Of a stretch of DNA of 64,000 nt, positions 4,572 through 47,746 are shown piece after piece. The notes below the pieces were generated by a model, which made no database searches, was not told where the DNA came from, and saw nothing but the letters and a program-made list of their open reading frames with translations. The DNA is from an uncultured Pseudomonadota bacterium (lineage in GTDB: Bacteria; SAR324; JACQKK01): assembly GCA_964583525.1 (NCBI GenBank), contig CAZOXD010000001.1:47572-111571 (forward strand), in the 5' to 3' direction. Each line of letters begins with the position of its first letter. The stretch's first letter is position 1. The position numbers and the translations under genes were made by a program.

Positions 4572-4716
4572 TGGTGTTGGCTCCCCAATATTTATGTACA
4601 GCCGTAAAATTAGTTGTGAGAAATGGACGCGGGATACCGCGCCCTTGGGGTTCGGGAGAAGGAAATTGAGGAGATCGGGCACGGCATACCGCGCCCGTAT
4701 GCTCCATTGGGAGGAT

Positions 4717-6543: not shown

Positions 6544-6903
6544 GAATACAACTCCAATGAAGAATCGAATGGGAAAGTCCGGCGGCCGGAATATCAAGGA
6601 ATGAACTTCCGGGGCGGCACCGGGAACCATGGAAGACTTTACGATAGGGTCCGTTGCTTTCAGGAAACCCCATCGGCGGGAAAACGGCAAGGGGGAGGGC
6701 CGGGAGGAAACAGCCCCGTTTGATAATCCGGTTACGGCGAAGGAACTTCAGCTCGCATTCATCCGATTCTTCTCTCTCCGCGGCAGGGCAAGCGCCTGCT
6801 GGCCTGGGGAGACCGAAACCAGTCACGCCGCTTTTCTAAGAAGAGCAAACCTGTTAGGAGATCAGAAAGAGCGGGTCCAACCTAAAATCCAGGTGCACCT
6901 TCC

Positions 6904-7317: not shown

Positions 7318-7449
7318 CCCAGTGCTGCAAATTCCCCTCCATATTCGCGCAGGAATCCGCATCCCGCACCGGGATGATATCCCGGTGCGGAAGGGGGGAG
7401 GTTGGGAGGGGAAACGGCCCCCCATGGGAATAGTGCTTAATGGCAGAAC

Positions 7450-7532
7450 TTCGGGTCAGAAGTTATTGAGCTATATTCTTGTTTTGTAACATTAATAATA
7501 TCAGTTCCTATTGGGTGAGCTTCTGACCCGAA
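7450..7532. repeat. 13-bp perfect inverted repeat (ttcgggtcagaag / cttctgacccgaa) flanking a ~57-nt AT-rich spacer in the convergent HIT/GYD intergenic region
   Basis: Seen directly; possible bidirectional terminator or a small MITE-like or structured element; coordinates approximate. Confidence 0.5.
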
Positions 7533-7535
7533 ATA

Positions 7536-7829
7536 CTAGGGCAGCCCGGCAACGATTTCGCGGTACTCGTCTTCCGGGAAGGCGCGCAGGGATTCGGTGC
7601 GGACATTGCCTTGGGCCCCGATGGCCAGGGCCATTCTGGCGCCCGCCTTGTCGTCCGGCACCGTGCCGATGCTGATGGCGTCGAAGCGGCCCATGGTGAG
7701 ATAGAACGCCTGCAATTCCCCACCGATGGCCTTGTAGGCTTCCCTGGCGGCATCCAGCCGGGCGGGGCCTTCCTTGATGTTGGCGACTCCCTGTTGCGTG
7801 AAATTGATTAAAACGACGTAGGTTTGCAT
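7536..7829 (-). CDS. GYD-domain protein
   Basis: Internal start MQTYVVLINFTQQGVANIKEG...LTMGRFDAISIG; ~97 aa GYD-like. Confidence 0.55.
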   Translation of the reverse strand: MQTYVVLINFTQQGVANIKEGPARLDAAREAYKAIGGELQAFYLTMGRFDAISIGTVPDDKAGARMALAIGAQGNVRTESLRAFPEDEYREIVAGLP

Positions 7830-8178
7830 GAGAAATCTCCTTTCTGAACGGTGAAATCCCGGGAGTCCCAGAATCCCCAACCGGCGAGGCTATCAACTCC
7901 GGGATCGGCAGCCCCTTTGAGAAATTCAAGGGGTGAATGCAGGAAGACCTCTGCCTGATATGGAGGCAGACTGGCCCGATATTGGATTGGGATGAAGCCC
8001 AGGGGGATGAATTCCATGGCGAGCCTCCCGCGTGATTCCTCGTGCGCATGGATGCGCGGAATCGAAGGATGGCCTGCCTCCCTGCAGGGCCGGAGGGAGG
8101 ATCACGCTAACACAAATTATTGTTGGTGTGGAAGGGAATTCCCTTCCTTGATTTACAGCGGATTCGCCCTGAATTCGG

Positions 8179-9870: not shown

Positions 9871-9912
9871 GGACACTCCTCCCTGCTGTCGGTTTCAGCC
9901 TGCCGGGGCCTT

Positions 9913-12294
9913 TCAGGTCAGGCGCCCCGCGATCCTGGACAGATCCCCCATGGAGAGGATGCCGACGGGATGGCGGCGGTCCTCCGGCGATTCGGTCACC
10001 ACAAGCCGGTGCACCTGATGGGAGAGCATCTTGTTGACGGCCTCCTTGAGGGACTCCCCCGGCCAGGTGACGATCACGTCGCGTGTCATCAGGTGCCGGG
10101 GCAACAGGGCGGGCAACTCCATCCGCTCCACGGGGCTGAGCCGGGCGCGGGTCAAATCCGTGGTGGAAATGATGCCCTCCATTTCCTTGTTCTCGTTGGT
10201 GACCACCAGGGCGGAGACCTTCTGCTCGCTCATTTTCACCATCACTTCGGGGAGTGGTTGGTCCGCGCGGCATGTGATCACCCCCAGGTGCATGAACTCG
10301 CCCACGGTGTGGCCTGTAAAACGCTGCTGCTCCTCGTCCTCTGCCGCGGCCATCACGGATTGCGGAAGCTCCTTCACCTCGTGGAAGCCCCGTTGGACGC
10401 AACGCAGGTTGGCCATCACCACTTCCTCGGAGAGGCGGCCGAAGTATTTCCGCAGGGCCACTTCCGCCTGTTTCATCAACTCCTCGTCCTGCAGGTCTTG
10501 TTGTTCCCGGAAGGGCGCGCAGCGCAGGAAAACTCCCAGCAGGACGATTCCCTGCATGCGGATTTCCAGTTCCGGGAGGGGAGATTCCTGGCGTGCGATA
10601 CCGGCGGCATCCAGGTAGAACACCCGGGCCCCGGCCTGGCGCAGGCTTCTGCGGGAGGGCATGGGAAACTGCTTCCACAGCGCCGCCTCGCTTTCCGCCC
10701 CCTCCCCCGGCCACTGCACGAAGGCGATGCCCCGGTCACTCATTCCCTGGAACGGGTTGCCCATCTCCAGGGCGTTGATGGTGTTGATGGGCACGAATTC
10801 GGCGTGGTCCATCTCGCAGTGAGTGCGGATCGGGCTGTGGGCCAGGGTCAGGTAGTAATTGGTGGGCAGGCCCTTCTTCTCCGATCCGTAGCGGGGGTAG
10901 GCCTGCACGTGCAACCCGAACAATTCGGCGGATACGGTGGCGATCACCTTGTTGGTGGTCACCGATCCGAACCCCCCGATGGAATACCCACGCATGGAAA
11001 ACGCGCCCTCAGGGCGGAGATCGGGCGCTTCCGTGGCCTCCAGACTGGAGGGATGGGCGATGTTGAGGGTGAAAAAATCCTTCCGTCCTCCCTCCAGGGC
11101 CTCCACCAGCGCAATCAGGTCGGTGGTGCGCACGTCCCGGCTGCCCAGCCCGGCCGATCCGGAGAGAATTTCGGGAATCCGGTGGATCTGGGGATAGCCC
11201 GGGTGCCCGGTAAGCGCATCGAAAAACGAGGCCTTGAGTTCCGTGGTGAGCGGGTTGCTTTGGGCAATGGGATCGTCCATGCGCTCGATGACCGCCAAAG
11301 CCTTCACGTCCTTGAGCATTTCCACCAACTGGGGCCCGGGAAAAGGCCGAAAGGCCGTGGGGTGGACCACTCCGACCTTGATGCCCCGCTGCTCCCGCAG
11401 ATAATCGGCCACCACTTCCGCCGTTTCCGCGGTGCTGCCCAGCGCCACCAGGGCGTATTCCGCGCCGGCCATGCGATAGCCGTTGACCAGGCCATAGTGA
11501 CGCCCGGTGAGCCCGTGAAATTCTTCCATGGCCACTTCCAGCGCCATGGGCACTTGGCTGGTGTAGAAGCGCTGCGCGATCTTGCCCCGCATGTAGGCTT
11601 CCTGATTCTGCACCACGCCGGACATGATGCCATGCTCGGTATCGAATACGGGCCGCAGCCGCTCCCCGGGCGGTCCGATGTAACTGGCCATCAATTCCGG
11701 CTCGGGCAAGCGGATCGTCTCCAGGGTATGGGTGGTGAGGAACCCGTCCTGCACGTTCATGAAGGGGGTTTCCGTGGCCTCGGCGCAGCGCCGGGAAATC
11801 AGGCACAAGTCGGCGGCCTCCTGGGCGTTGCGGGCGAAGAGCATGCCCCACCCCACATCGGACACTCCCATCACGTCGTCATGGCCCGCATGGACGTTGA
11901 GCGCCTGGCTGGTCAAGGCCCGCGCGCCGATATTGAACACCACCGGAAGCCGCTTGCCGCTGATCACATAGAGTACTTCCTTCATCAGGATCAGGCCTTG
12001 GCCGGAGGTGAAGTTGGTCACACGGCCCCCGGCCAGGGCAAACCCCTCCGCGGCAGATGCTGAGGAATGTTCCGATTCGGCTTCCAGAAAGTGCAGGGTG
12101 TCTCCCCACAGGTTTTTCGCCCCGTTGGCGGCGGATTGGGCATATTGAACGCCCATGTTGGTGGAGGGTGTGATCGGAAAAGCGCAGGCGGCTTGGCTGA
12201 CGTGGGTTTCCACCCATACCACACCCCCAGTGCCATCGTCGGCCACCGGAATTCCGGGGAAGGGAGGCGGGGGCAGGTTGCGCTCTTCTTTCAT
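9913..12294 (-). CDS. Pyruvate:ferredoxin oxidoreductase, N-terminal subunit (domains I-IV) fused to a C-terminal CBS-domain pair
   Basis: PFOR domain I (AACAFPITPST...), transketolase-C-like domain II, domain III, then two CBS motifs (HTVGEFMHLGVITCRAD..., HLMTRDVIVTWPGESLKEAVNKMLSHQVHRLVVTE). Start MKEERNLPPPP chosen inside track ORF 9913..12345. Confidence 0.85.
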   Translation of the reverse strand: MKEERNLPPPPFPGIPVADDGTGGVVWVETHVSQAACAFPITPSTNMGVQYAQSAANGAKNLWGDTLHFLEAESEHSSASAAEGFALAGGRVTNFTSGQGLILMKEVLYVISGKRLPVVFNIGARALTSQALNVHAGHDDVMGVSDVGWGMLFARNAQEAADLCLISRRCAEATETPFMNVQDGFLTTHTLETIRLPEPELMASYIGPPGERLRPVFDTEHGIMSGVVQNQEAYMRGKIAQRFYTSQVPMALEVAMEEFHGLTGRHYGLVNGYRMAGAEYALVALGSTAETAEVVADYLREQRGIKVGVVHPTAFRPFPGPQLVEMLKDVKALAVIERMDDPIAQSNPLTTELKASFFDALTGHPGYPQIHRIPEILSGSAGLGSRDVRTTDLIALVEALEGGRKDFFTLNIAHPSSLEATEAPDLRPEGAFSMRGYSIGGFGSVTTNKVIATVSAELFGLHVQAYPRYGSEKKGLPTNYYLTLAHSPIRTHCEMDHAEFVPINTINALEMGNPFQGMSDRGIAFVQWPGEGAESEAALWKQFPMPSRRSLRQAGARVFYLDAAGIARQESPLPELEIRMQGIVLLGVFLRCAPFREQQDLQDEELMKQAEVALRKYFGRLSEEVVMANLRCVQRGFHEVKELPQSVMAAAEDEEQQRFTGHTVGEFMHLGVITCRADQPLPEVMVKMSEQKVSALVVTNENKEMEGIISTTDLTRARLSPVERMELPALLPRHLMTRDVIVTWPGESLKEAVNKMLSHQVHRLVVTESPEDRRHPVGILSMGDLSRIAGRLT

Positions 12295-28389: not shown

Positions 28390-30741
28390 TCATCCAAATC
28401 CGTCCTGGGGTTCGACCGCGGGGCCGTCGCTGGCTTCCCAGGCATCGTCCCGGGTCACCGCGATCAGCACCGAGCGGCATTGAAAGTGATTGGGCGGGCG
28501 GTAGTTGGGGCGGCCCGTCCAATATTCCGAGTCCATCTCGTAAACCTTGCCGTCCAGCTCGCGGCAGATGGCCGTGGTGCGGCCGTCGAGGATGGCCGAG
28601 TATTCCTGGGCTTCCACGTACCCCTCCAGTTCCGGATCGGCGAAGAAGGAGTAACGCGCCTCGTTGACGGCCTCGAAGAGATTGGTGCGCACCACGTTCA
28701 CCAGCCGGGCGTCGGGGTTGACGGTCTCCAGCACGCGGCGCAGGCGTTCGCGGGCGGGCTCGTCCAGGTCGTCGGCGATCGCCTCCTGCGCTTCCGCGCC
28801 CAGCATCCCTTTCCGGGAAAGCTCGGTGTAGATCTCCTCCACCATTTCCTCGGTGGTAGCCGTGGTCTTGATGCCCTTGGAGAGGATGTTCCTGATGGTG
28901 GCCAGGGCGTCCTCGCTCAGCTTGCCGGCCATGGCGAAGCTCTTGGAATCGAAGAACGCCGCCGCCGCATCCTCGATGCCGGCCATATCGATGCGCTGGG
29001 CGAACTCCGCTCCGCGCCGGGCCTTGGCGATCTCGTCCCGGGCGTGGCGCCGGCCCAGCCCCCAGCCCTCTTCCAGCATCTGGCGCAGTCCCTTGCGGAG
29101 CCGGGTCACGTCCTTGGCGGCGAAGCTCAACGCGCCTATGGCTTCCACGTCTCCATCGATCTGTCCCAGCTGCTTCCCGCGCACGATGGCCGCCAGGGCG
29201 ATCACGGCCCGGCCCATGGCGGCGCTGGCGGCATCGACGCCCGTTGCCTCCAGATCCCCCGCTCGCTTATCGATCACGGCGAAGTCCACCCGCCGCGCCG
29301 CCCGCGTGAACGCCCGCGCGTTGATGTTGGAAAGCGCGGCCCGGGAAAGCCCGCTGATGGTGATGTTGGCCTGGGCGCTGACGGACTCCTCGCCGGGGGC
29401 GTCCGCGGGCGGCTCCACCTCCGGCCCTTCGGAGCCCGGCGCTTCCGGAGCCGCGCCGCCCGGCTGCTGGCCGGGCCCTTGGGGGCTCACCTTGAGGGGC
29501 TCGCCGCGGGGCGGGAAACCCATCATATCGCGCAGGTGCTCCTCGTCGGTGTCGGACGGAACCACCGATCCGGCGGCGACAGCGTCCTTCCAGGATTTGA
29601 TGAGGCGCTCCAGCAGTTCCACCGAGGCAGGCTTGAACTTGAACTTGGGATAGATCCCGTCTCCCCAGTTGAGATCCCCCAGATCGCGCCAAAGCTGCTC
29701 GTCCAGGGTTTCCTCCAGCCGCCCGGCGTCGGCTTCCAGGCTCATCAGGAAGGCTTCCAGTTGGGTCTGGCTCTGGGAATAGCTGCCCGTCTGCCCCTGC
29801 TCGCTCAGGCCCAGCAGGTTGGGCACCAGCAGCGCCTTGCCGATGCCCTTGTCGCAGCGGGCGATGCGCTCGTCGTAGGCCACCTTGGTCTGGGGGTGTT
29901 TGGTTTCCAGGTCGATCCCGTTGGGGAGCAGCAGCCAGGTCTTGCTGTTGATGTTGGCCATCATCTCCTTCAACGTAGCCAACTCCGCGCTGCCTTCGGT
30001 GATGTTGCGGCTGCCATCGGGCTTGAGGATGATAAACCCGGCCGCGTGACGCTCCATCCAGATATTCCAGAACTTGATCACCATGTCCTTGGAGAACCAG
30101 TCCCGGTAGGCCTCGCGCAGTTCGCTCTGGCCGTAGTGCTCGTCGATGTCCGGATTCTGCACGTAATGGATGAAGCGGGCCGCATCGATCTCGATCTCCT
30201 GGCCGCCCACCCGCTGCACGATCTTCTCGATGTTGCCGTGCTTGTCGGTGTGGAACTGGAAGGTGTGCGCCGGCCGGGCCTTGAGCCGTTCCAGGCCCCA
30301 CCAGGTCTTGCCCTCGTGCTCGATTTGTCCGTAGACCTTCTCTGTCAGCGAGAAACCGTTGATCATCCCGGCCATCACGCCGTTGAGGGCGTCGCGGAAG
30401 CTGCCCTTCATCTCCGACACGATGCGCTCGCAGATCGCGATGCGGCGCTCGCTCTCCTCCTCGCCCAGGGCCTCGTCGTCCAGTTGGAAAAACCAGCTCC
30501 GCGCCGTGATGGCGTCGCGCCGGAACTTGACCACCGCCTTCACCTGCTCGTCCAGCATCATTTTGCGGTAGATGGCTGCGCCCTTGCGCCCGATCAGGTC
30601 GTCCGGGTTGTACTTGGGGAAGTCCCGTGCGGAGTAGATGCGGCTGTCCGCCCAGGCCACCTCGCCCATGGGCGGCGCTTCGGGCTTTTCCGTTGCGAAG
30701 AAACCCCGCACTCCGCTGGCGATGCTCCGCAGGGCGCTCAT
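28390..30741 (-). CDS. Portal protein (DUF935, Mu gp29-like) fused to Mu F-like head morphogenesis domain
   Basis: N-terminal DUF935-like region; C-terminal SAILDGRTTAICRELDGKVYEMDSEYWTGRPNYRPPNHFQCRS matches the Mu F / SPP1 gp7 family. Confidence 0.75.
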   Translation of the reverse strand: MSALRSIASGVRGFFATEKPEAPPMGEVAWADSRIYSARDFPKYNPDDLIGRKGAAIYRKMMLDEQVKAVVKFRRDAITARSWFFQLDDEALGEEESERRIAICERIVSEMKGSFRDALNGVMAGMINGFSLTEKVYGQIEHEGKTWWGLERLKARPAHTFQFHTDKHGNIEKIVQRVGGQEIEIDAARFIHYVQNPDIDEHYGQSELREAYRDWFSKDMVIKFWNIWMERHAAGFIILKPDGSRNITEGSAELATLKEMMANINSKTWLLLPNGIDLETKHPQTKVAYDERIARCDKGIGKALLVPNLLGLSEQGQTGSYSQSQTQLEAFLMSLEADAGRLEETLDEQLWRDLGDLNWGDGIYPKFKFKPASVELLERLIKSWKDAVAAGSVVPSDTDEEHLRDMMGFPPRGEPLKVSPQGPGQQPGGAAPEAPGSEGPEVEPPADAPGEESVSAQANITISGLSRAALSNINARAFTRAARRVDFAVIDKRAGDLEATGVDAASAAMGRAVIALAAIVRGKQLGQIDGDVEAIGALSFAAKDVTRLRKGLRQMLEEGWGLGRRHARDEIAKARRGAEFAQRIDMAGIEDAAAAFFDSKSFAMAGKLSEDALATIRNILSKGIKTTATTEEMVEEIYTELSRKGMLGAEAQEAIADDLDEPARERLRRVLETVNPDARLVNVVRTNLFEAVNEARYSFFADPELEGYVEAQEYSAILDGRTTAICRELDGKVYEMDSEYWTGRPNYRPPNHFQCRSVLIAVTRDDAWEASDGPAVEPQDGFG

Positions 30742-31043
30742 GATTCCCTCCGCTTGGCGGTGAAGGGAACCTTCCAAAAGCCGTCCCGCCCGCTGCTGGC
30801 CACGACTGTGATCTCGGCGGTGTACTCGGCGTCCTCCGTGGTGGACAAGGCCTTGTCCACGGTGGCGCGGTAGACCCCGTCCGACCCGGCGACGTAATCC
30901 ATGGCGAGAGGGAAGGTGACTCCGCTCACTTCATTCTCATTGGCGTCCTTGATAGTCACCGTGACCGTGGCGTTGTTGATGGGCCCGTCCCTGTCCCAGA
31001 TGGCCAGCTCGGCCTCGTTGTCGTTGAGATGAAACCAGGCCAT
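30738..31043 (-). CDS. Small hypothetical head protein (Ig-like beta-rich)
   Basis: Internal start MAWFHLNDNEAELAIWDRD...; ATGA overlap with the portal start. Confidence 0.4.
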   Translation of the reverse strand: MAWFHLNDNEAELAIWDRDGPINNATVTVTIKDANENEVSGVTFPLAMDYVAGSDGVYRATVDKALSTTEDAEYTAEITVVASSGRDGFWKVPFTAKRRES

Positions 31044-31044: not shown

Positions 31045-32433
31045 TCAGCCCCCCACCCTGGCGCGGCCGCCAAGCACCGGGTGCAGATCGGGGCGCCCCT
31101 CCACGGCCGGCCGGAAGACCGCCCGGCCATCGATCACGGGATGTAGGGAGATGTCCGCGTAGATGGGGAGGCCCGCCGCCGCGCCACTCTCAGCTTCCAC
31201 CGTGGGCGCCAGTCCGGTCAGCGTGAACGTGCCCAGAGGCGGGGCCACCGATGCCCCGGCCGCCACGGCAGGAGTCTGTCCGGACAGCGCGAACGTCCCC
31301 AGGGGCGGAGCCACCGACGCGCCGGCCGCCACGACCGGAGCTTGCCCGGACAGCGTGAACGTGCCCAGGGGCGGGGCGACGGAAGCGCCACCGGCCACGG
31401 CCGGAACCTGGCCCGCCAGCGCGAAAGTCCCCAAAGGCGGCGCGACGCTGGCGCCGCTGGCGACGGCTGGAACCTGGCCGGCCAGGGTGAACGTGCCCAG
31501 TGGCACGGCGATGTCCACGCCCGCCGCTGTGTCGATGGTTGGAGCGAATCCTGTCAGGGAGAATGTGCCCAGGGGGGCATCGACCTTGGCGCCGGTTCCC
31601 ACTGCCGGAACCTGCCCGGTCAACGCGAATGTTCCCAACGGCGGGGCGACGCTTGCGCCGGCCGCCACGGCTGGAACCTGCCCGGTCAATGCGAAGGAAC
31701 CGGCCGGCACTGTCACGCCGGCACCGGAGGCCACGGCCGGAACCTGTCCGGCCAGGGTGAACGTGCCCAAGGGAACCGCCACCTCCGCGCCCGAGGCGGT
31801 TTCGATGGTGGGAGCGAAACCCGTCAGGGAAAACGTGCCCAGCGGCGGGGCGACGCTCGCGCCCCCGGCCACGGCGGGAACCTGCCCGGCCAGCGCGAAG
31901 CTGCCCGCGGGTGCATCCACCTTGGCGCCGGTGCCCACTGCGGGAGTCTGCCCGGCCAGCGTGAAGGTGCCCAGGGGAGGGGCCACCGATGCGCCACTGG
32001 CGACGTCCGGCACTTGGCCGGCCAGCGTGAACGTGCCCAGGGGGACGGCGATGTCCACGCCACCGCCGCTGACTGTCACGACCTGTGTACCGGTCAAATC
32101 CTCCGCACCGCCATCGTTGTTATCGATGGTTTTGATTCGGATGTAATAGGTGCCGGCCGTGTTTGCTGTGACCGTTTTTGTCTTGGCGGTAGAATCGCCA
32201 ATCCCCAGTACGGGATTCGGGGTGGGCGTCGTCAGCGCTGCCCCGGTAGAGGGGATGTCAACATAGTTCGCGGGCGAGTCTCCATTTCCTTCATCCCACT
32301 GCCAATGCATGTCGTAATCAAGCCCGCCATGCAAACCTTCGGTGATTTGGGCGCCGAACAAAAAAGTATCTGACTCGGCGGGTGCGGGATCGCTGAGCGG
32401 TTGAGTAATCGCAACTGATGAAACGATGGCCAT
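31045..32433 (-). CDS. Repeat-containing virion protein: N-terminal Ig-like region plus ~13 tandem 22-aa repeats (consensus GASVAPPLGTFTLAGQVPAVA)
   Basis: Protein from the ORF track shows near-perfect 22-aa periodicity; located between the terminase block and portal. Confidence 0.6.
   Translation of the reverse strand: MAIVSSVAITQPLSDPAPAESDTFLFGAQITEGLHGGLDYDMHWQWDEGNGDSPANYVDIPSTGAALTTPTPNPVLGIGDSTAKTKTVTANTAGTYYIRIKTIDNNDGGAEDLTGTQVVTVSGGGVDIAVPLGTFTLAGQVPDVASGASVAPPLGTFTLAGQTPAVGTGAKVDAPAGSFALAGQVPAVAGGASVAPPLGTFSLTGFAPTIETASGAEVAVPLGTFTLAGQVPAVASGAGVTVPAGSFALTGQVPAVAAGASVAPPLGTFALTGQVPAVGTGAKVDAPLGTFSLTGFAPTIDTAAGVDIAVPLGTFTLAGQVPAVASGASVAPPLGTFALAGQVPAVAGGASVAPPLGTFTLSGQAPVVAAGASVAPPLGTFALSGQTPAVAAGASVAPPLGTFTLTGLAPTVEAESGAAAGLPIYADISLHPVIDGRAVFRPAVEGRPDLHPVLGGRARVGG
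31176..32061. repeat. ~13 x 66-bp tandem repeat array (coding, inside 31045..32433)
   Basis: Derived from protein periodicity; long antisense ORFs in this region (31163..32146, 31342..32373) are artefacts of the repeat. Confidence 0.6.
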
Positions 32434-32799
32434 CTAGACCTCCTCAACTTTCAAGCAGCACCTTTTCGCACCCTGCGCCCAGCGCTCGTTGACAAAGTCC
32501 ACGTCCAATTGCTGTTTAGGCCACGCCGCGCAGGACATGGGCTTGCAGGCCATCCCCCGTTCCGCTTGAAACATGCAGCGCAGATCATCTGTTAAAAACT
32601 CGCACCGCTGGCCGTTCACCCCCTTCCAGTTGATCTTGACGCAGCACAAGGCCCCGCAGATTTCGGTGGGGCAGCGCAGACCGCCGTTTCCATCGTCCAC
32701 GTATCCAGTCACCTGGTAGGATTTCCCATCGCGTCCGATAAACTTCTCGATGCGCCAGTCCTCGGTGCGGAAGGTGATAAATGAATATTGGCCGGGCAT
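32434..32799 (-). CDS. Cysteine-rich small protein (C-x3-C-x3-CC ... C ... C ... C), putative metal-binding
   Basis: Internal start MPGQYSFITFRTEDW...; CPTEICGALCCVKINWKGVNGQRCEF... Confidence 0.4.
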   Translation of the reverse strand: MPGQYSFITFRTEDWRIEKFIGRDGKSYQVTGYVDDGNGGLRCPTEICGALCCVKINWKGVNGQRCEFLTDDLRCMFQAERGMACKPMSCAAWPKQQLDVDFVNERWAQGAKRCCLKVEEV

Positions 32800-33249: not shown

Positions 33250-33549
33250 TCAGGCCTCCTTCCGTTGCCTGGGTTTACCAACCGGCACGGCGATGCCGGC
33301 GCCCAGCGGCAACCCGTTGGGCGGCTTTTCCATCCCGTAGGTTTTCAGGTTGGCCAGGCTGGTCTGGAACTCCGCCAGCTTCTCCTTCCAGCGCGGGGCC
33401 TTGGGATGGCCCGGATGCGCCTTGAGGTTGGCCTTGAGCTTTTTCACGTTGGGCAGGATGCGATCCACCCGTCCCACGATGCGCGCGGCTTTGAGATCGG
33501 TGGGGTCGGCCTCGTGCATCTTGCGGGCCGCCGCGATGATGTCGGTCAT
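33250..33549 (-). CDS. Small basic hypothetical protein
   Basis: 99-aa ORF in the translationally coupled series. Confidence 0.35.
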   Translation of the reverse strand: MTDIIAAARKMHEADPTDLKAARIVGRVDRILPNVKKLKANLKAHPGHPKAPRWKEKLAEFQTSLANLKTYGMEKPPNGLPLGAGIAVPVGKPRQRKEA

Positions 33550-33866
33550 GTCAGTCTCCGGTGGTTCGGTTGGGCGCTTCCATTGGCGCCGTTGCCTTTC
33601 GGCAGCGGATCACTCCTGCCCGCCATCAGCGCCCGGTCGTCGACCTGGAAGAGCTTTTTGCAGGTAAGGCATTCCAGATTGGTGAGCTTGGCCGCGCCGT
33701 GGCTGACCAGCCGGACATGGGCGCGGAAGGCCATCATCCCGCACCGGTCGCAGCGGATGAGCTTCTCCCCCGCGCTGGGCACGATGATCTGCGGCGTCAT
33801 CCGCAGCGGCGTCTTCTTCGACGGAATGATGAGCGGGCTCTTCCTGAGCCTGTTGCGTTTCGGCAT
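33546..33866 (-). CDS. Small zinc-finger-like protein (CxxC...CxxC)
   Basis: ...IRCDRCGMMAF...LECLTCKKLF... Confidence 0.4.
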   Translation of the reverse strand: MPKRNRLRKSPLIIPSKKTPLRMTPQIIVPSAGEKLIRCDRCGMMAFRAHVRLVSHGAAKLTNLECLTCKKLFQVDDRALMAGRSDPLPKGNGANGSAQPNHRRLT

Positions 33867-33879: not shown

Positions 33880-35427
33880 TCAAGTCAACCCGGCATCGTA
33901 GCCGGCGTTCTCGGATTCGCCCCCGGCCACGGGGACGGCGATGCCCAGCAGCGAGTCGATCAGCCGCCAGGCGTTTTCGGCGGCGTCCGGGCCGTCCAGG
34001 TTGCCACGCTGGGGGAAGAACACGTGCTGATCCACAAGCCTGTCCTGGTCTGAATCGCCTTGGATGAAATGGACGGCGCCGCGCTCCCAGGCGGCGGTCA
34101 TGCGCATGATGCGCACGTCCTTGGGGATCAGGTTCACCACCTGTTGACCCAGGGCTTCCACGGGCAGCCCCCGCGCGGCGCGGGCCTGCTCCAACGGGAA
34201 CTCGAACAACTCCTGGAACCCGTTGGCCTCGTAACCGGAAACCCAGATCCAATGACCGCGCCCCATCACCGCCTCGACCTGGTTGAAGTACTCCGCCACC
34301 TGCTCGGTGGGGGAAGCCGTGCGCGAGAGGAACGCCTTCAGGCAGAAACGGTGTCCCAGTTCGGGATCGAGGGCCCAGGTTTCGATGGCCTTCCAGTCGC
34401 CGCCGCCCTGCTTGCGGGAGATGGCCGGATCCCAATAGACGGCGATCAGCAACGGGCGGTGCTCAAGCTGCTCGCGGCGGTAGTGGCGCACCCACTCGCG
34501 GCGGAAGGCGCTGTCCTTGTTGACCGCGATGAGGAGATATTCCAGGTTGAAGTCGTCCGGCTCGTCAGCCAGTTCCTCGCGCTTGGCGGCGATGAAGGCC
34601 GCGTCGAAGCGCACGGGATCGGTGGGGTTGCCGTCGCTGTCCGCGATGGGATGGATGAACTTGGCCCAGGCCTTGCTCTGGCTGCGTTCCAGGCGCGAGA
34701 TGGCGCAGTCCTCGGTCAGGCGGGTGCCGATGGCGATCAGCTTGTAGCCGGTCTTGCGCATGGCGGGGATGATCTTGCGGCGGATGTCGGTCAGGAGTTT
34801 GGTGATCGTGTCGGGATTGCGGGCGTCCTGGTCGTCCTGGAAGTCGTCCAGCTTCCACCTGTCCGGACGCCGGTTGTGAACAACGGAGCGCAGACCGCGC
34901 AGGCCGGAGGCCACCGAGTGACCCATCACCTCCGCGCCGTTGCGCAAGACAAAGTGGGAGCGCCCCCACACCGGGCCGAAGGCCAGATCGCCGTAGTCCT
35001 GGCGCAGGCGGGCGTTGGCCTCGAACTCAAGGCGCACCTGCAGCGTGGTGGGGTAGGTCTGGGGATCGGTCTTGGAGGTGAGCACGGTGAAGTCCGAATC
35101 GCCGGTGCACAGCTCGCGCACGGTCTCGGCGTAGGTTTCCCGGGTGGACTTGCCCCGGCCGCGGTGCTCCACGTCCAGCACCAGGCGCTTGGAATCGCGC
35201 ACCTCCGCCCAGCGGTCGTCGATTTCCGTGAACGGCTCGTCGAAGAGGTGCGGGAAGTAGTGCTTGAAGAACCAGAAGCGGTCGGCCTTGCCGCGCCGCT
35301 TGCGCTCCGCGATGGCCGCGTCCGAGCCGTCCGGCAGTTCGCTGGTGGCTTCGGCGATCAGGCGCCGGTGCTCGGCCTCCAGCTTGTCCAGCTCGCGGTT
35401 GAGCTGCCGGTCGGTGAGGTCAGGCAA
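33880..35427 (-). CDS. Terminase large subunit
   Basis: 515 aa; N-terminal ATPase-like region (LVLDVEHRGRGKSTRETYAETV) and C-terminal nuclease-like region; sits after TerS. Confidence 0.75.
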   Translation of the reverse strand: MPDLTDRQLNRELDKLEAEHRRLIAEATSELPDGSDAAIAERKRRGKADRFWFFKHYFPHLFDEPFTEIDDRWAEVRDSKRLVLDVEHRGRGKSTRETYAETVRELCTGDSDFTVLTSKTDPQTYPTTLQVRLEFEANARLRQDYGDLAFGPVWGRSHFVLRNGAEVMGHSVASGLRGLRSVVHNRRPDRWKLDDFQDDQDARNPDTITKLLTDIRRKIIPAMRKTGYKLIAIGTRLTEDCAISRLERSQSKAWAKFIHPIADSDGNPTDPVRFDAAFIAAKREELADEPDDFNLEYLLIAVNKDSAFRREWVRHYRREQLEHRPLLIAVYWDPAISRKQGGGDWKAIETWALDPELGHRFCLKAFLSRTASPTEQVAEYFNQVEAVMGRGHWIWVSGYEANGFQELFEFPLEQARAARGLPVEALGQQVVNLIPKDVRIMRMTAAWERGAVHFIQGDSDQDRLVDQHVFFPQRGNLDGPDAAENAWRLIDSLLGIAVPVAGGESENAGYDAGLT

Positions 35428-37209: not shown

Positions 37210-37785
37210 TCAAAACCACGGCTTGAGGAAGCCCTTGATTTTCATCGAGGCCCAGGCCGGCGATTTGACGTAGCGGATCTTCTCGTAGACGCCGTCGCCC
37301 TCGCGCACCACGTGCTTGCCGGGGCCGGTGTTGCCCTCGACGGTGCCCATCTTCACGCCGCCCTCCAGGATTTCCGTGACGATGCCGACGTGCCCGCGCG
37401 AGGTGGCCCGGCCGTCCTTGTGGTATTGCCACAAGACCAGGCAGCCCGGCTCCGGCGCGGCGATGCGCGCCTTTTTGGGGGACTTGTTCCAGACGGTCAG
37501 CACGTGTTCGCTGGCATAAAGCCGCGCTTCGGGCGAGCCGCCGATGGCCAGGCCCAGCCTGTCCACCTGCTCGATGCAGAACCAGGCGAAGGACGCGCAC
37601 CACGGCTCGCCTTGGGCGCGGCCGTCCACGGCCTTTTGGAAACGCTCCACCGCCTGGCCGCGGTTGTCGCCGCCGCGCTCGGAGAAGCCGATCCATTCCC
37701 TGGCGAAGAAGATCAGCGCGTCGGGCTTGCGGTGATCGGGCAGCGCCACATCGAAGATGCCCGGATCCGGGATCGTCGGGGCCAA
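37210..37785 (-). CDS. CHAP-domain peptidoglycan hydrolase (endolysin)
   Basis: Catalytic Cys (EPWCASFAWFC) and His (GHVGIVTEI) motifs; downstream of the holin. Confidence 0.7.
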   Translation of the reverse strand: MAPTIPDPGIFDVALPDHRKPDALIFFAREWIGFSERGGDNRGQAVERFQKAVDGRAQGEPWCASFAWFCIEQVDRLGLAIGGSPEARLYASEHVLTVWNKSPKKARIAAPEPGCLVLWQYHKDGRATSRGHVGIVTEILEGGVKMGTVEGNTGPGKHVVREGDGVYEKIRYVKSPAWASMKIKGFLKPWF

Positions 37786-38659: not shown

Positions 38660-38986
38660 TCAGGTCAGAATTCCCAGGTAGAAAAGCAACGCGTAGATCG
38701 CCGCCAACAATCCCAGCGCCCCGGCCGTGATGAGGAGACGGCCCCCCGCCGTGAGGCCCTTGATCTGAAAAGGGGAGGGCTTGCCGGGGACGTGCTCGGG
38801 CCGGCCGGAAGTGTCCACCTTGGTTAGCGCCCAGATCAGCGCCACGGCCCAGCCGAGGAACGTCCAGCCCAGCAGCACATTCACCGCCACGATGGCCAGG
38901 GTTTGGTGATGGCGGCGGGAACCGGCGACGACCGAGGGCACGATGTAGAGCGCCAGGCCAAGGCCCGATAGTATGATCAGTTCCAT
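38660..38986 (-). CDS. Superinfection immunity protein (Sim/Imm family, PF14373-like)
   Basis: Motif LLGWTFLGWAVALIWAL typical of this family; adjacent to the repressor. Confidence 0.6.
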   Translation of the reverse strand: MELIILSGLGLALYIVPSVVAGSRRHHQTLAIVAVNVLLGWTFLGWAVALIWALTKVDTSGRPEHVPGKPSPFQIKGLTAGGRLLITAGALGLLAAIYALLFYLGILT

Positions 38987-40926: not shown

Positions 40927-41457
40927 ATGAGCGAGAATCCCATGCAATTGAATACAACCCGCTTCGGAACTATCGGGATCAATGACGGCCAGATGCTGAC
41001 TTTCGGAGACGGATTGCTAGGTTTCCCCGAACACACCCGTTACGCATTGATTGAGGCCGAGATCGGCGATCCCTTCCTGTTGTTGAGATCGTTGGTCGAT
41101 AAGTCCGTCAGATTCCTGGTGATCGAACCATCGCATTTCTTCCCCTCCTACTATTTCACGGTAAAGAAGGCGCAGATCAAGGCATTGGATACCGACGATG
41201 TCGATGATCTCCAGGTGCTCGTCCTAGTGACCATAGCCCCCAACATCCTGGACGTTACCGCCAATCTGCTGGGGCCGATCGTCTTCAACAAGAAAAACCG
41301 CATCGGCATGCAGATATTGCTCGACGATTTCAATTTAAGCACTCGGGAGCCTCTCTTCAATGACCGGCCGGATAACGAGGCCGAAGCAGTCGGCATGGTG
41401 ACTCGGGAAAACCGCACAGCCTCCGCGCGCGCAGCCATCCACGGTCTGGAGGCCTAG
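40927..41457 (+). CDS. fliW: FliW-like protein (flagellar assembly factor / CsrA antagonist family) with a ~30-aa C-terminal extension
   Basis: TRFGTIGINDGQMLTFGDGLLGFPEH..LIE......FLLLRSLVDKSVRFLVIEPSHFFPSYYF...LVLVTIAPNI..VTANLLGPIVFN follows the FliW consensus along the whole core. Confidence 0.7.
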   Translation: MSENPMQLNTTRFGTIGINDGQMLTFGDGLLGFPEHTRYALIEAEIGDPFLLLRSLVDKSVRFLVIEPSHFFPSYYFTVKKAQIKALDTDDVDDLQVLVLVTIAPNILDVTANLLGPIVFNKKNRIGMQILLDDFNLSTREPLFNDRPDNEAEAVGMVTRENRTASARAAIHGLEA

Positions 41458-43818: not shown

Positions 43819-44186
43819 CCGATCAAAAATACATCGGATTTCTCGAATCCAGGAACGCCTGTTTGCACACGACCGTTGTGCGCCTACTGGCTGTCATGGA
43901 GAAAAGCGGAGCTGGCGATATCCATTGGATAAAAACCGGAGAAAGAATTCAGGAAACCGCCGCACAAGGAACCTCTGAAGCCACAGCCGAACGATTTATC
44001 AAGTGTTTTGGTGAGATGTCGGAAGTGACAGATGCCGCAAAGGCGTTTCTAACAACCGGAACGCCGGAGACAAAGAGCGCATTGCAAAAAAAACTGGCGA
44101 TATATGAACGGGGAGAAAACCGCCGCACCCGCAATATTCAGGCCTTGGCTAAGAAAGGCGAACCCTGGTGGGACGCGAAGCCATGA
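43815..44186 (+). CDS. Small hypothetical protein
   Basis: Internal start MTDQKYIGFLESRNA... Confidence 0.4.
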   Translation: MTDQKYIGFLESRNACLHTTVVRLLAVMEKSGAGDIHWIKTGERIQETAAQGTSEATAERFIKCFGEMSEVTDAAKAFLTTGTPETKSALQKKLAIYERGENRRTRNIQALAKKGEPWWDAKP

Positions 44187-45838
44187 CCGACCCTATCCAC
44201 ACCCTCTATCTGGACACCCTGGGCGCGGACAAGGCCGCCCGCAAGGCCGCCGTCGCGGAGACCGCCGCGCGGCTGGGCCTCCAGTCCGACACTGTGCGCA
44301 AGAAGCTGGACAAACTGGGCCGCGCCCGCTCAGAGCCCCGCGCGCGCGCAACCGATCCCGAGTTGGAAGCAGCCGTAAATATCGTGTGGGAATTCAAGCT
44401 GACCCCGGACGGGCCCATCGCCACCGAAGCCGCGCTGCAACTGGCGATCAGCGAGGGCAGGCTGTTCAAGGCCTGGCCGGTGGGTTCCCTCAACGCCGCC
44501 GCCAAGCGGCTCGGCCTGAGCGAACAGGCCGCCTACTGCCGGCGCATGGAAGCTCCCCACGCCAACCGCACCCACCGCGTGGACGCTTCCGGTTCGCGTC
44601 ACTTCCAGGTAGTGGAGGATGCCGGGGACGGGGACTGGCTGCTCCGGGTCTGCCGGGCCGAGCAGCGCAACAAGCGCTGGCGCGGGGAGGATGCCAGCAA
44701 CCTGCTCTGGATCGTGACGGTCATCGACGACTATTCGCGCGTTTTCAACGTGGGCTACCAGGTGGCTCCGGGGGAAAGCGCGGCCATGATCCAACGCTTC
44801 CTGGTGGAAACCTGGCGCGACGCCCAGCCGCGCGGCCTGCCCGAGGTGCTGATCGCGGACAACGGATCGTTCGCCAAGGAGACCTCCTCCAAGGCGCTGC
44901 TGGCCTTCTTCGACATCCAACTGATCACCGGCCAGCCCTACAATTCCCAGCGCAACGGGCGGGTGGAGCGGCCCATCCGCACCATCAAGGAGGGCTTCGA
45001 GCGCCCCATGCTGGCCACCCATGACCTGGGATCGATCGTGCGGCTCTCGCAACTCAAGGAAGAGTTGAAGGTTTTCATCGCAGGAGTGAACGGGAGCCGC
45101 CATCCCATCAGGCGCGACCGCACAAAGCGCGAGGACTGGGAGCGCGGGATGGCCTTCCGAGAGTTGCGCGAGTGCCCCCAGGACGCGCTCCACTACGCCA
45201 CCTGGCGCGAGCAGCGCACCGTCACGGCCGAGGGCGCCGTCCAGCACAAGAACAAGCTGCTGGAAATCGTGGATCTCCCCTACGGTCTGCGCGGCCGCAA
45301 GATTACGCTCTGTTACAACGCCTCCGGAGAAATCATCGCCGAGCACGAGGGCGCGCGCTACGCCGTGCGCGGCTTTGTCCCGGTGACCCTGGGCGGCTAC
45401 GAGAGCCAAGCCCATACCGGGCGCGGCGATCCGCCCTCCAAAGCCGCCGCCGCCAAGGCCGAGGCCCGCCAGAAGACGGGCGTGGGCTTCCATGCGCCGG
45501 AGCGCCAAGCCGCCATCAAAGCGGCCGGCGAGCAGCCCCATGCCCCGGGCGAGCAGGCGCTCCCCGGCGCGGGCGCGCGGGTGATTACACCGCCGCCGCG
45601 CATCCGGGACGCGGTGCAGGTAATATCCGGCAAAACCGATCCCTTCCAGATCGCGTCCGACCGCTACAAAACCGTGGACGAGGCCGTCGCGGCGGTGCAG
45701 GAAATCGTCGGCAAGCCCAGCCACGTCTGGCTCAACAAGGAGCAGCGCCAAACGCTGGAGAAGATTCTGCGCGGCTTCGATCTGGATCGCCGCAAAACCG
45801 CCGCGCTGGCCGATCGACTGCGCCAGCAAAGCGCGTGA
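44183..45838 (+). CDS. Mu-like DDE transposase (MuA/rve-family integrase core)
   Basis: ...WIVTVIDDYSRVFNVGYQVAPGES...VLIADNGSFAKE...GQPYNSQRNGRVERPIRTIK... DDE triad with N-terminal DNA-binding region. Confidence 0.8.
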   Translation: MTDPIHTLYLDTLGADKAARKAAVAETAARLGLQSDTVRKKLDKLGRARSEPRARATDPELEAAVNIVWEFKLTPDGPIATEAALQLAISEGRLFKAWPVGSLNAAAKRLGLSEQAAYCRRMEAPHANRTHRVDASGSRHFQVVEDAGDGDWLLRVCRAEQRNKRWRGEDASNLLWIVTVIDDYSRVFNVGYQVAPGESAAMIQRFLVETWRDAQPRGLPEVLIADNGSFAKETSSKALLAFFDIQLITGQPYNSQRNGRVERPIRTIKEGFERPMLATHDLGSIVRLSQLKEELKVFIAGVNGSRHPIRRDRTKREDWERGMAFRELRECPQDALHYATWREQRTVTAEGAVQHKNKLLEIVDLPYGLRGRKITLCYNASGEIIAEHEGARYAVRGFVPVTLGGYESQAHTGRGDPPSKAAAAKAEARQKTGVGFHAPERQAAIKAAGEQPHAPGEQALPGAGARVITPPPRIRDAVQVISGKTDPFQIASDRYKTVDEAVAAVQEIVGKPSHVWLNKEQRQTLEKILRGFDLDRRKTAALADRLRQQSA

Positions 45839-45850
45839 GAGGGCAGAGAA

Positions 45851-46030
45851 ATGAAACACCTGTTGAAAAAACGGACACCGATTCACATAAAGCATCTCCG
45901 AGCTGCCGCCAAAGCGTTCGAGGAAATGATCGATCTTGGGGAGGAATTCCGGGGATCGGGGACAGACAGTGATCAGCGGTACCGCCTGATGAAAGAGCTC
46001 AGGGAATTCGCGGCTTGGCTTGAGGGATGA
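45851..46030 (+). CDS. Small hypothetical protein (59 aa)
   Basis: Manual ORF MKHLLKKRTPIHIKHLRAAAKAFEEMIDLGEEF...; below the track size cutoff. Confidence 0.35.
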   Translation: MKHLLKKRTPIHIKHLRAAAKAFEEMIDLGEEFRGSGTDSDQRYRLMKELREFAAWLEG

Positions 46031-46050
46031 TTGAACGGAGAGAGCAACCC

Positions 46051-46167
46051 ATGATCTTCACTATCATCGTGCTGGCCGGGTTTCTCGCGGCCGGAATCGT
46101 CCTGGGCTGGCTGGTGAAACACGCCGTCAAAGCCACGGTGGAAATCTTCTCGCAGTTCAACCGCTGA
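46051..46167 (+). CDS. Small membrane peptide (38 aa)
   Basis: MIFTIIVLAGFLAAGIVLGWLVKH...; GGAGAGAG RBS. Confidence 0.35.
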   Translation: MIFTIIVLAGFLAAGIVLGWLVKHAVKATVEIFSQFNR

Positions 46168-46188
46168 AACCAGGGAAAGGAGAAAGCG

Positions 46189-46362
46189 ATGCGCGCATTG
46201 ATCTTGATCGAGGACGACGGCAAGGGCGGGGTCAACCTGGAAATAGGGGTCACCACTATCGACTATGACCCCGAAAGCCCCGCGCTGCTGGTGCACCGCG
46301 AACTGGTGGATCGGGCCTTGGAACTGACATCCAAACCCAAACCGGGAAAGGAGCAGGGATGA
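46189..46362 (+). CDS. Small hypothetical protein (57 aa)
   Basis: MRALILIEDDGKGGVNLEIGVTT...; strong RBS GGAAAGGAGAAAG; ATGA overlap with the next gene. Confidence 0.4.
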   Translation: MRALILIEDDGKGGVNLEIGVTTIDYDPESPALLVHRELVDRALELTSKPKPGKEQG

Positions 46363-46811
46363 GTATTCCAAGCGAACATTTTGAAAATGCTTTTCGCGGC
46401 GGCGGCGGGATCAGGGCCGAATGTGATTTTTGTGGGCGAGTCCATTTTACAACGCTTCCATTCGCAGGGGATTGGGAGGAAGGAGAATTTGAAAGCCTCA
46501 TTGAAAGAGCAGAAAACAACCCCGATCAATACATCGCAGAAGGCCGATACGATTCAATAACATATGGAACCCTGGCGGGGCGCACCTATGTTCTTGATTG
46601 CCCATGCGTCGAGGAAAAGGTGCTCCCTTATGAGAACTTCATTTGGAACTACAGGCACCAGATTCTTTCCTACCACCAAATGAGAACGAAGTCGGAGCGA
46701 GATGAAGCCGAGCGTAACCATGAAGAGGTGAGCGACCAATACAAACCTTGGTGTGCCCCAACAACCCGCCAACAGGAAATAAACAGAGCCAGATCAAGGA
46801 TGCTCTCATGA
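46359..46811 (+). CDS. Cys-containing hypothetical protein (lower GC)
   Basis: 150-aa ORF; CDFCGRVHF...LDCPC. Confidence 0.45.
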   Translation: MSIPSEHFENAFRGGGGIRAECDFCGRVHFTTLPFAGDWEEGEFESLIERAENNPDQYIAEGRYDSITYGTLAGRTYVLDCPCVEEKVLPYENFIWNYRHQILSYHQMRTKSERDEAERNHEEVSDQYKPWCAPTTRQQEINRARSRMLS

Positions 46812-47746
46812 CCCCCACCAAGCCCGAAATGCTGGAGTTCCTGGGGCTGGCCCGGGATCCCTTCGCCAAGCTGCGCGAGGCGGGGGACGTCTGGCCAAGC
46901 GTGACGTTGCGCTCGGCGCGGCACCTGGTGGACTACGCGCTCTCGCATTCCGAAATGGTGGCCATGCTGGGGGGCTTCGGGGTGGGCAAGACCACCCTCC
47001 TCCACGCCGCCCTGGAGTCGGTCGAGCAAGGGCCCGGAGAAACCATCGCCATTCACGTGGCTGGCTCCAAGGACACCCTGCGCATCTCGGCCGTGGTGGA
47101 GGAGATGCTGCGCGGGCTGGGCAACGACCGCCTCCCGCAGAGCGAGACCGCCCGCCGCCGGATGCTGAAAGCGGCGCTGGTGGGCGCCTTCGGCCAAGAC
47201 AAGCGGATCGTGCTGGTGATCGACGAGGCCCACCGCATGAAGGGCATCACGCTGAAAGCGCTCAAGGAACTCCACGAGCAGAGCCGCCACGCCTGGCGCG
47301 AGGCGACCTTCGCCATTCTGCTGGCCGGGCACCGGCAACTGACCGCCCTGGCCCATTTCGAGGCGCGGGACTTCCTGGCGCGGCTGGAGTCCCACAACAT
47401 TCTGCACCTGAGCGCCCTCAGCGCCGGGGAAGCCGCCATGTACATCTGCCACCGGCTGGACGCCGCGGGCGCTCCGCAACTGCTGGAGATGGACACGCTG
47501 GAACTCCTGGCGCGGCGCGGGACGCCGCTGGAGATCAACCGCACCATGTGGCGGATCTTCGAGGCGGCGTACCTGAAGAACGTGAAACCGATCACGCCGG
47601 AGCTGGTGCGGGCCGTGCTGCCCACGCCCCCGGCCCCGCCGGACGCAAGCGCCGGAAACATCGACGACCTATTGAAGGGTCTGAGCGAACCGAACGGAGG
47701 CAGGGATGCCGCAAGCAGCAACATCAGAACCGCCCATGGTGAGTGA
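46808..47746 (+). CDS. MuB-like AAA+ ATPase (transposition target DNA activator), paralog 1
   Basis: Walker A GGFGVGKTT, Walker B VLVIDEAH; conserved N-terminus (MLEFLGL..DPF..L, DYALSHSEMVA). Confidence 0.7.
   Translation: MTPTKPEMLEFLGLARDPFAKLREAGDVWPSVTLRSARHLVDYALSHSEMVAMLGGFGVGKTTLLHAALESVEQGPGETIAIHVAGSKDTLRISAVVEEMLRGLGNDRLPQSETARRRMLKAALVGAFGQDKRIVLVIDEAHRMKGITLKALKELHEQSRHAWREATFAILLAGHRQLTALAHFEARDFLARLESHNILHLSALSAGEAAMYICHRLDAAGAPQLLEMDTLELLARRGTPLEINRTMWRIFEAAYLKNVKPITPELVRAVLPTPPAPPDASAGNIDDLLKGLSEPNGGRDAASSNIRTAHGE

Follow-up and report, generated by a model that had tools for sequence, protein, structure and literature searches.

A family of 22-residue repeat phage proteins linked to PHROG 644 genes, and a predicted appendage cassette between the terminase and portal genes of a Mu-like siphovirus prophage

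The window analysed here is a stretch of 64,000 nucleotides from contig CAZOXD010000001.1 (assembly GCA_964583525.1) of an uncultured bacterium of the SAR324 lineage, and it contains a Mu-like prophage. Between the large terminase (TerL) and portal genes of this prophage lies a gene for a 462-aa (amino acid) repeat protein, here called REP (Table 1). REP probably serves as the rod subunit of an accessory appendage on the virion, a self-contained structure encoded by a mobile cassette. Each of its three parts has its own co-inherited partner: the repeats go with a protein of family PHROG 644, the N-terminal domain with a Cys-rich protein, and the C-terminal tail with a small Ig-like protein. 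A repetitive, fibre-like phage protein is not surprising as such; the 22-residue family, its tight linkage to PHROG 644 (annotated as of 'unknown function') and the three-way modular partnership appear to be undescribed so far.

REP consists of an N-terminal domain, an array of 13 tandem units and a C-terminal tail. Eleven of the units are 22 aa long and two are 24 aa, and they share the core motif G-[TS]-F-x-L-x-G. An earlier reading made from the letters alone (the sequence-only reading) had described a 462-aa open reading frame (ORF) with about 13 repeats of 22 aa between terminase and portal. The ORF is real and lies between TerL and a portal-MuF fusion, and the repeat count stands, with a consensus close to the one noted. 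The same reading called the repeats near-perfect and saw in this a sign of recent expansion, and here it is contradicted by the DNA. Tandem Repeats Finder gives periods of 66, 132 and 270 bp with only 74–78% matches, and in pairwise comparison the units are on average 69% identical, in DNA (range 52–88%) as well as in protein (45–95%). The 270 bp period is a four-unit super-repeat, in which units 1, 5 and 9 are alike, as are units 4, 8 and 13. Residues conserved between units are specified by different codons in 49% of cases, and the mean synonymous divergence (pS) is 0.52 against a nonsynonymous divergence (pN) of 0.21, with pS exceeding pN in 76 of 78 pairs (pN/pS about 0.4). Because synonymous divergence between units is this high, the array is old, has been kept by purifying selection on the protein, and has not recently expanded. 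The longest exact DNA word repeated in it is 22 nt, making it a poor substrate for replication slippage, so that the slippage site proposed earlier is a weak one. Long protein repeats need not mean recent expansion or instability.

A public contig (L098) is base-for-base identical to the window and gives no independent check against an assembly artefact; repeats this diverged are, by that very divergence, not prone to assembly collapse or expansion. Two plus-strand ORFs antisense to the array, 31163..32146 (327 aa) and 31342..32373 (343 aa), were rejected as shadow frames of GC-rich periodic sequence. Across the array the source assembly calls only the minus-strand gene and neither of the plus-strand ORFs.

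The repeat array defines a family. A large protein database holds 148 REP homologues, every one of them aligned via the array, at 24–52% identity. Of the 120 homologues listed, 107 have a best self-period of 22 aa (74) or 44 aa (33), and the core of the family unit is G-x-[FY]-x-L-x-G-Q-x-P, which REP with its 13 units fits. Gene length in the family runs from about 180 to more than 1290 aa at a constant 22 aa period; the period is conserved and the number of repeats varies widely between phages. The length variability anticipated by the sequence-only reading is thus found between phages, but was not shown between lysogens. The non-repeat parts also vary, and include Laminin_G_3, F5/8 type C and beta-sandwich domains, globular C-termini and, in one case, MuF. 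Homologues were found directly ahead of an endolysin gene, among the structural genes of a podovirus, beside an integrase gene where a structural block ends (L004), after a DUF2793/Gly-rich tail-fibre-like gene in a Devosia prophage (L005), and in a head module between portal and protease genes, where the array is fused to MuF. REP has no match in Pfam, NCBIfam, PDB sequences or GenBank phages, and no PHROG function.

An AlphaFold model of REP (31-sequence alignment) has a mean predicted local distance difference test score (pLDDT) of 57.6, falling below 50 at both ends. For the array (pLDDT 60–72) the model shows regular beta structure, each unit contributing about three short strands. All Foldseek matches to the model were right-handed parallel beta-helix proteins (AlgE4/6, TibA, Ag43 and tailspikes), with expectation values (E) of 0.04–1 and template modelling (TM) scores of 0.2–0.33; the best match had an E of 0.04, TibA an E of 0.06, and none was significant. 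A coil of 22 residues is the canonical repeat of the right-handed parallel beta-helix fold. At a rise of 4.8 Å, 13 such rungs would form a rod of about 6 nm. REP resembles beta-helix rods (pectate-lyase/PbH1 proteins, tailspikes, AIDA/TibA/Ag43) in a repeat length of about 22 residues, which would equal one coil, with conserved Gly/Pro at turns and alternating hydrophobic residues, and in the one rung per repeat seen in the AlphaFold model. It differs from them in having no Pfam beta-helix/PbH1 match and no catalytic or autotransporter domains, and in rungs that are far more regular than those of enzymes with this fold.

The repeats are tightly linked to a gene for a PHROG 644 protein. A PHROG 644 homologue lies 0–3 genes upstream of the repeat gene, and on the same strand, in all five homologue loci with enough flanking DNA (L002–L006, representing four independent contexts, as L003 duplicates L002). 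The reverse test, using phmmer against the 120 homologues together with an autocorrelation test, found a same-strand REP-family match in 57 of 80 viral loci fetched with a PHROG 644 alignment. A clear periodicity of 20–24 aa, mostly of exactly 22 aa, is present in about 45 of the matched ORFs, and the matched repeat genes mostly begin 0–2.5 kb downstream of PHROG 644. Two other repeat detectors were discarded: a hidden Markov model built from the 13 units of the window was too narrow (no locus reached at least 3 units at the threshold used), and a strict regular expression missed known positives. In a sample of PHROG 644 loci, the upstream neighbour was a portal in three cases, a tail-fibre or tail protein in two, and TerL or a glycosyltransferase-like protein in one each. 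The module is mobile and is found where other modules meet. In L004 it also shares a further gene with the window, as a homologue of the 99-aa protein of the cassette lies directly upstream of the PHROG 644 gene (E 8.6e-11).

The AlphaFold model of the PHROG 644 protein has a pLDDT of 93.6 (37-sequence alignment). Against the PDB, the only meaningful Foldseek match was to 9d93_Ra (E 0.012, probability 1.00, TMt 0.64), confirmed to be gp31 of phage Bxb1, the 'Tail wing arm'. Comparison of PHROG 644 with gp31 by hhalign was marginal (E 0.07 over 43 columns). The best matches of the model in BFVD are uncharacterised proteins, including those of Mycobacterium phage Onyinye (E 1.7e-10) and Agrobacterium phage Atu_ph07; a 502-aa virion 'structural protein' of phage 7-7-1 was matched with an E of 8.7e-7 and a TM of 0.75, and 'tail collar fiber' proteins more weakly. 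Neither REP nor the PHROG 644 profile produced a useful match among PDB sequences; a weak concanavalin A match (E 0.006) was dropped, as the PHROG 644 profile did not reproduce it.

PHROG 644 proteins were located by tblastn in several isolates. They occur in Gordonia phage GMA1 (orf27, followed by orf28 and then an integrase gene), Gordonia phage Sixama (gp104, annotated as a minor tail protein), Mycobacterium phage WIVsmall, the satellite MiniFlayer (gp6, right after the capsid gene and followed by the 1376-aa gp8) and phiCbK-like Caulobacter phages. In Caulobacter phage CcrMagneto the homologue is gp073, which matches the PHROG 644 profile by hhalign (probability 97.8%, E 1.2e-12) and directly precedes gp074. 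GMA1 orf28 is the sole isolate partner protein detectably similar to REP; such similarity was sought and not found in the phiCbK-type gp074, MiniFlayer gp8, Sixama gp105, 7-7-1 gp009 and gp010, and Bxb1 gp33.

The N-terminal domain of REP (about 125 aa) has a distribution of its own. It is present in 83 cluster representatives, begins at residue 1–6 in nearly all of them, and is followed by an array with a period of 20–24 aa (or double that) in 41 of the 55 proteins longer than 230 aa; the unit sequences behind these other N-domains are quite unlike those of REP. The G+C content at third codon positions (GC3) is 0.60 in the N-terminal domain, compared with 0.81 in the array and 0.81–0.86 in the rest of the gene, and the low value suggests a separate history for this domain. 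The sequence-only reading described the N-terminus as Ig-like, which could not be demonstrated: the domain is conserved but has no Pfam match, and AlphaFold gives residues 1–93 a pLDDT below 50. The weak Ig-like matches belong to the next gene. The partner of the N-terminal domain is the Cys-rich 121-aa protein, homologues of which are encoded directly upstream of N-domain genes in both contigs inspected, L104 (E 7e-26) and L105 (E 8e-43). It carries the pattern C-x4-C-x3-CC ... C-x-F-L ... C and has no Pfam match even at an E of 10; the pattern is reminiscent of the YkgJ/FliB-type 'CxxCxxCC' metal-binding cysteine-cluster domain. Comparison of the PHROG 644 profile with a 124-aa protein of L104 by hhalign gave no signal, and the link between these two is one of position or structural analogy only.

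The C-terminal tail goes with the 101-aa Ig-like protein, which has a weak Invasin_D3 match (E 1.7e-4) and few homologues. In L106, a 268-aa REP-like protein ends in a similar tail (ADI..RPAVEG.PD..P.L.GG) and is followed by a homologue of the Ig-like protein; a PHROG 644 homologue and three Gly-rich paralogues are encoded in the same module. In L108, the Ig-like homologue comes after a protein with a 20 aa repeat array. The three L106 paralogues (444, 431 and 433 aa) are encoded in tandem at 1590..5530, between the PHROG 644 homologue and the REP-like gene, and combine a conserved N-terminal domain with a C-terminal half that is extremely rich in Gly, as in Bxb1 gp33 and phiCbK gp76. In L004, the slot behind the repeat gene is filled by a 93-aa protein that matches PDB 8jou_D and Pfam Gp77; from its length and Pfam name we provisionally take 8jou_D to be the tail-fibre adapter of phage GP4. 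The adapter of this podophage is a 93-aa Ig-like protein, which forms a collar around the head-to-tail adaptor (PMC11445570). In the window, the slot filled by the 93-aa protein in L004 is taken by the 101-aa Ig-like protein, directly upstream of the portal, but GP4 with its collar fibres (PDB 8jou; Pfam Gp77 and Gp80) is a podophage whereas the phage described here is a siphovirus, and hhalign showed no sequence relation between Gp77 and the Ig-like protein of the window. As hhalign gave no signal, the parallel between the Ig-like proteins of the window and of L004 is positional only.

The genes between TerL and the portal are, in order, two small genes, the PHROG 644 gene, the gene for its Cys-rich neighbour, REP and the gene for the small Ig-like protein. 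Nine viral loci with related portals (39–47% identity) were retrieved, and the TerL-portal junction could be read in L007 only (portal 45% identical), the other eight having too little upstream DNA. In L007, TerL (8430..10004) abuts the portal (10001..12238), and searches of the nine loci with REP and PHROG 644 gave no match. Since TerL adjoins the portal in L007 and neither protein is matched there, the six genes are an inserted cassette relative to L007. A scan of a genome collection with the portal found no relative, and GenBank phages were matched neither by tblastn with REP nor by megablast with the 11 kb region. The viral-contig relatives at 39–47% identity have in common that the portal and a MuF-like minor head protein form a single fusion of 783–795 aa.

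Within the cassette, REP is tightly bound to its neighbours. Its start codon abuts the stop codon of the upstream gene (TAGATG) and is preceded by a GAGGAGG Shine-Dalgarno site, while the ATG of the 101-aa gene lies one base past the REP stop codon. No promoter-like site was found on the coding strand at REP, and terminator-like sites there were not above chance. The ribosome-binding site, the stop-start coupling and the lack of internal promoter or terminator signals place REP in a tightly coupled late operon. These features bear on whether REP could be a lysogen-expressed moron, a cell-surface adhesin or exclusion factor made by the prophage and not a part of the virion. Insertion of the cassette relative to a related phage and the atypically low GC3 of the N-terminal domain are in its favour, but the coupling to late-operon neighbours, the absence of promoter and terminator signals, an N-terminal sequence in which no signal peptide was visible (read by eye, without a predictor) and the occurrence of the family in lytic-type viral contigs, within structural modules, make it very improbable. 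The idea of a virion-module fibre, decoration protein or adhesin, raised in the sequence-only reading, is broadly supported by the late-operon coupling, by the structural modules in which the family is found and by the gp31-like partner.

As the subunit of an appendage, REP would contribute one rung of a beta-solenoid with each 22-residue unit, and the rod would be tied to the virion by the PHROG 644 protein (resembling the Bxb1 arm) and the Ig-like protein. The appendage would make weak, reversible contacts with the host surface, either polysaccharide or flagellum, and so raise the efficiency of adsorption. Rod length and end domains would be swapped between phages, retuning binding. The adhesive role is suggested by the lectin-type domains of other family members and the roles of comparable appendages. 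These domains (Laminin_G_3, F5/8 type C), typical of external receptor-binding proteins and present in most family members, also speak against an internal capsid protein, in which the repeat rod would be packaged with the portal-MuF protein and released on infection. One homologue (P0110) does have an N-terminal array fused to MuF, between portal and protease, and the gene in the window is near a portal-MuF fusion. However, other family members occupy tail-fibre-like positions, and the PHROG 644 partner resembles an external appendage protein, so that packaging inside the capsid is highly unlikely.

Several points weigh against REP as the rod of an appendage. Its place in the virion is predicted; the structural model is modest and its fold matches are non-significant, and prediction of a monomer is unable to tell a single-chain solenoid from an intertwined trimer. 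Part of the 57 matches of the reverse test may stem from non-repeat domains in the query set. The link of PHROG 644 to gp31 consists of one Foldseek match and a marginal hhalign result, and that of the Ig-like gene to the C-terminal tail comes from two loci only. The Ig-like protein of the window shows no hhalign similarity to the Gp77-type adapter and no Gp77 Pfam match. REP lacks the Gly-rich 'brush' domain of Bxb1 gp33, and the cassette has no homologue of the wing base. Finally, the MuF domain fused to one family member is usually found on proteins inside the capsid.

Where the appendage would be mounted is a separate question. Gene position and several relatives argue for the head or neck, while the only solved analogue argues for the tail tip. 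A head or neck fibre, mounted on the capsid or on a portal or neck collar, would catch flagella or surface glycans before the tail engages, and would be comparable to the head filament of phiCbK, the capsid fibres of 7-7-1 or the collar fibres of GP4. The cassette lies in the head-packaging module, about 9–13 kb (eleven called genes) upstream of the tail-tip genes, and PHROG 644 is head-proximal elsewhere too: after the capsid gene of MiniFlayer, after the portal in L006, L029, L033 and L060, and after TerL in L034. In CcrMagneto, gp073 directly precedes gp074, the counterpart of phiCbK gp76, which has been published as a head-filament candidate (PMC3556154). Among the virion proteins gp009–gp012 of 7-7-1, gp011 is predicted to have a PHROG 644-like fold; the adapter-like protein of L004 points to a collar mount; and the prophage encodes a FliW homologue. 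On the other hand, gene position is a weak guide, since the same pair of genes is found elsewhere after tail-fibre genes or beside lysis genes, and the one relative of the PHROG 644 protein with a solved structure is located at the tail tip. The filament role of phiCbK gp76 is a hypothesis, gp074, MiniFlayer gp8 and 7-7-1 gp009 have no detectable homology to REP, and a solenoid of 13 rungs, at about 6 nm, would be far below the size of known head filaments. A head or neck mount is possible but less than probable.

The solved analogue is the wing of Bxb1 (PDB 9d93), where the wing-base gene (gp30) is followed by that for the arm (gp31), by one for a 63-aa protein and by gp33, the Gly-rich 'wing brush'. 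In a strict tail-tip wing of this type, REP would be the distal element, carried on an arm-like protein at the periphery of the baseplate. Support comes from the Foldseek match of PHROG 644 to gp31, and from gene order, as the arm, small ORF, brush and integrase of Bxb1 are mirrored by orf27-orf28-orf29-integrase in GMA1, and in L004. Both systems have a small arm-like gene 0–3 genes upstream of a repetitive or low-complexity distal protein, in an accessory structural position. Sixama gp104 is annotated as a minor tail protein, and Gly-rich, brush-like proteins are found in related modules (L005, L106 and the phiCbK-type gp074), those of L005 and L106 being in the same module. There are also differences. 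REP has 22-residue beta-type repeats and no Gly-rich domain, and a Pfam scan of the cassette genes found no wing-base (DD-carboxypeptidase) gene. The cassette lies between terminase and portal, far from the tail-tip genes of this phage, rather than at the end of the tail genes, and sequence support for the gp31 link is marginal. We consider a strict wing rather unlikely.

The phiCbK-like phages offer a further comparison for the predicted rod. As in the window, the repeat protein (phiCbK gp76, CcrMagneto gp074) has a clear PHROG 644 homologue immediately ahead of it and lies nearer the head than the tail genes, and gp074 has C-terminal units of about 22–24 aa with the pattern G-T-I-x-V. It is unlike REP in being about 2800 aa long, with Gly-rich domains and a ConA-like lectin domain, and in lacking detectable homology. 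Gill et al. proposed phiCbK gp76 as the head filament, and the protein was undetected in virions (PMC3556154). Compared with known head fibres and decoration proteins (phi29 gp8.5, T4 Hoc and the phiCbK candidate), REP shows no sequence or fold similarity in Pfam, PHROG, NCBIfam or the PDB, nor any to gp074. In 7-7-1 (L103), four annotated virion proteins, gp012 to gp009, are encoded at 6334..10740, between the small and large terminase genes. The C-terminal domain of gp011 is predicted to fold like PHROG 644; hhalign of the PHROG 644 profile against this C-terminus gave no signal, so the resemblance is a structural analogy only. About 12 'GDWEYPxY' repeats are present in gp010, and the end of gp009 consists of five units of about 22 aa that carry the motif 'VAPMADA'. 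According to a 2025 cryo-electron microscopy paper on 7-7-1, the capsid-fibre proteins of this phage are unidentified, and term searches of the paper found no mention of gp009–gp012 (PMC12796354).

PHROG 644 and a protein of about 22 aa period might represent a general and hitherto unrecognised 'plug-in' appendage system of tailed phages, the same as the phiCbK filament (gp073 with gp074/gp76) and the capsid fibres of 7-7-1 (gp009–gp012), with the cassette of the window as a compact, head- or neck-mounted version in a FliW-carrying prophage. We regard so broad an identity as unlikely, and the link to the head fibres of phiCbK and 7-7-1 as a lead, not a result. It does provide candidate genes for the unidentified head fibres of both phages. 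The REP family, which has no Pfam or PDB representative, and its link to PHROG 644 offer a starting point from which hundreds of 'hypothetical' phage genes could be annotated as accessory appendage modules. Separate partners for the N-terminal domain, rod and C-terminal tail suggest a modular design, which could serve host-range engineering.

Genes for a tail terminator, a tube-like protein and a 660-aa tape measure protein lie further downstream of the capsid genes, identifying the phage as a siphovirus. An rve transposase, a MuB-like ATPase and a DUF1804 protein mark it as a Mu-like transposable prophage in a bacterial chromosome, and bacterial genes are present at both ends of the window (4717..6690 on the minus strand, and 59017..63817), encoding aldehyde ferredoxin oxidoreductase, adenylate cyclase (Cache + HAMP) and thiolase.

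Table 1. Features of the REP cassette and of other parts of the prophage (window positions).
Feature	Position	Strand	Evidence or remark
REP (repeat protein), 462 aa	31045..32433	minus	ATG-to-stop ORF; same gene called in source assembly
REP N-terminal domain, aa 1-124	32062..32433	minus	83 cluster representatives
REP array, 13 tandem units, aa 125-414	31192..32061	minus	Tandem Repeats Finder, unit alignment
REP C-terminal tail, aa 415-462	31045..31191	minus	motif ADI..(H/R)P.V...RPAVEG.PD..P.L.GG
TerL (large terminase)	33880..35427	minus	phrog_38, E 2.7e-51; upstream boundary of cassette
106-aa protein	33546..33866	minus	weak zinc-ribbon match; high GC3; called in source assembly
99-aa protein	33250..33549	minus	high GC3; called in source assembly; homologue in L004
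PHROG 644 protein, 149 aa	32799..33248	minus	phrog_644, E 1.1e-18; one gene upstream of REP
Cys-rich 121-aa protein	32434..32799	minus	homologues upstream of N-domain genes
101-aa Ig-like protein	30738..31043	minus	weak Invasin_D3 and Big_1 matches
Portal (Mu type)-MuF fusion	28390..30777	minus	Portal_Mu E 1.2e-53, Phage_Mu_F E 5.9e-12; downstream boundary of cassette
Protease, scaffold, major capsid protein	downstream of portal	minus	
GT4-methyltransferase-GT2 protein, 1027 aa	21684..24767	minus	
CHAP-domain protein	37210..37785	minus	precomputed Pfam match
Imm_superinfect protein	38660..38986	minus	precomputed Pfam match
FliW homologue	40927..41457	plus	Pfam FliW, E 3.7e-34
rve-domain transposase and MuB-like AAA protein	44168..47746	plus	Mu-like prophage

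The major capsid gene and the large glycosyltransferase gene (GT4-methyltransferase-GT2), about 0.8 kb further downstream, are separated by a single 158-aa gene. The glycosyltransferase gene is also found just downstream of the capsid gene, at 38–46% identity, in L007, L009, L011 and L015, without a REP match in the available DNA, although only the flank of L007 spans the TerL-portal site, the other three being cut upstream or having too short a flank. As the gene is conserved in relatives that have no REP match, the enzyme is decoupled from REP, and the suggestion that REP is a substrate of this neighbouring glycosyltransferase (as in AIDA/TibA-type systems) was rejected on co-occurrence. Its conservation may point to glycosylation of the virion (capsid).

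A scan of the window for tRNA and Rfam families found none. Upstream of the packaging genes are genes for a CHAP-domain protein and for an Imm_superinfect (superinfection immunity) protein. The FliW homologue is encoded in the early region of the prophage. FliW is a flagellin-binding assembly factor and antagonist of CsrA, and the phage copy suggests manipulation of flagellar synthesis in the host, and possibly a flagellum-related lifestyle.

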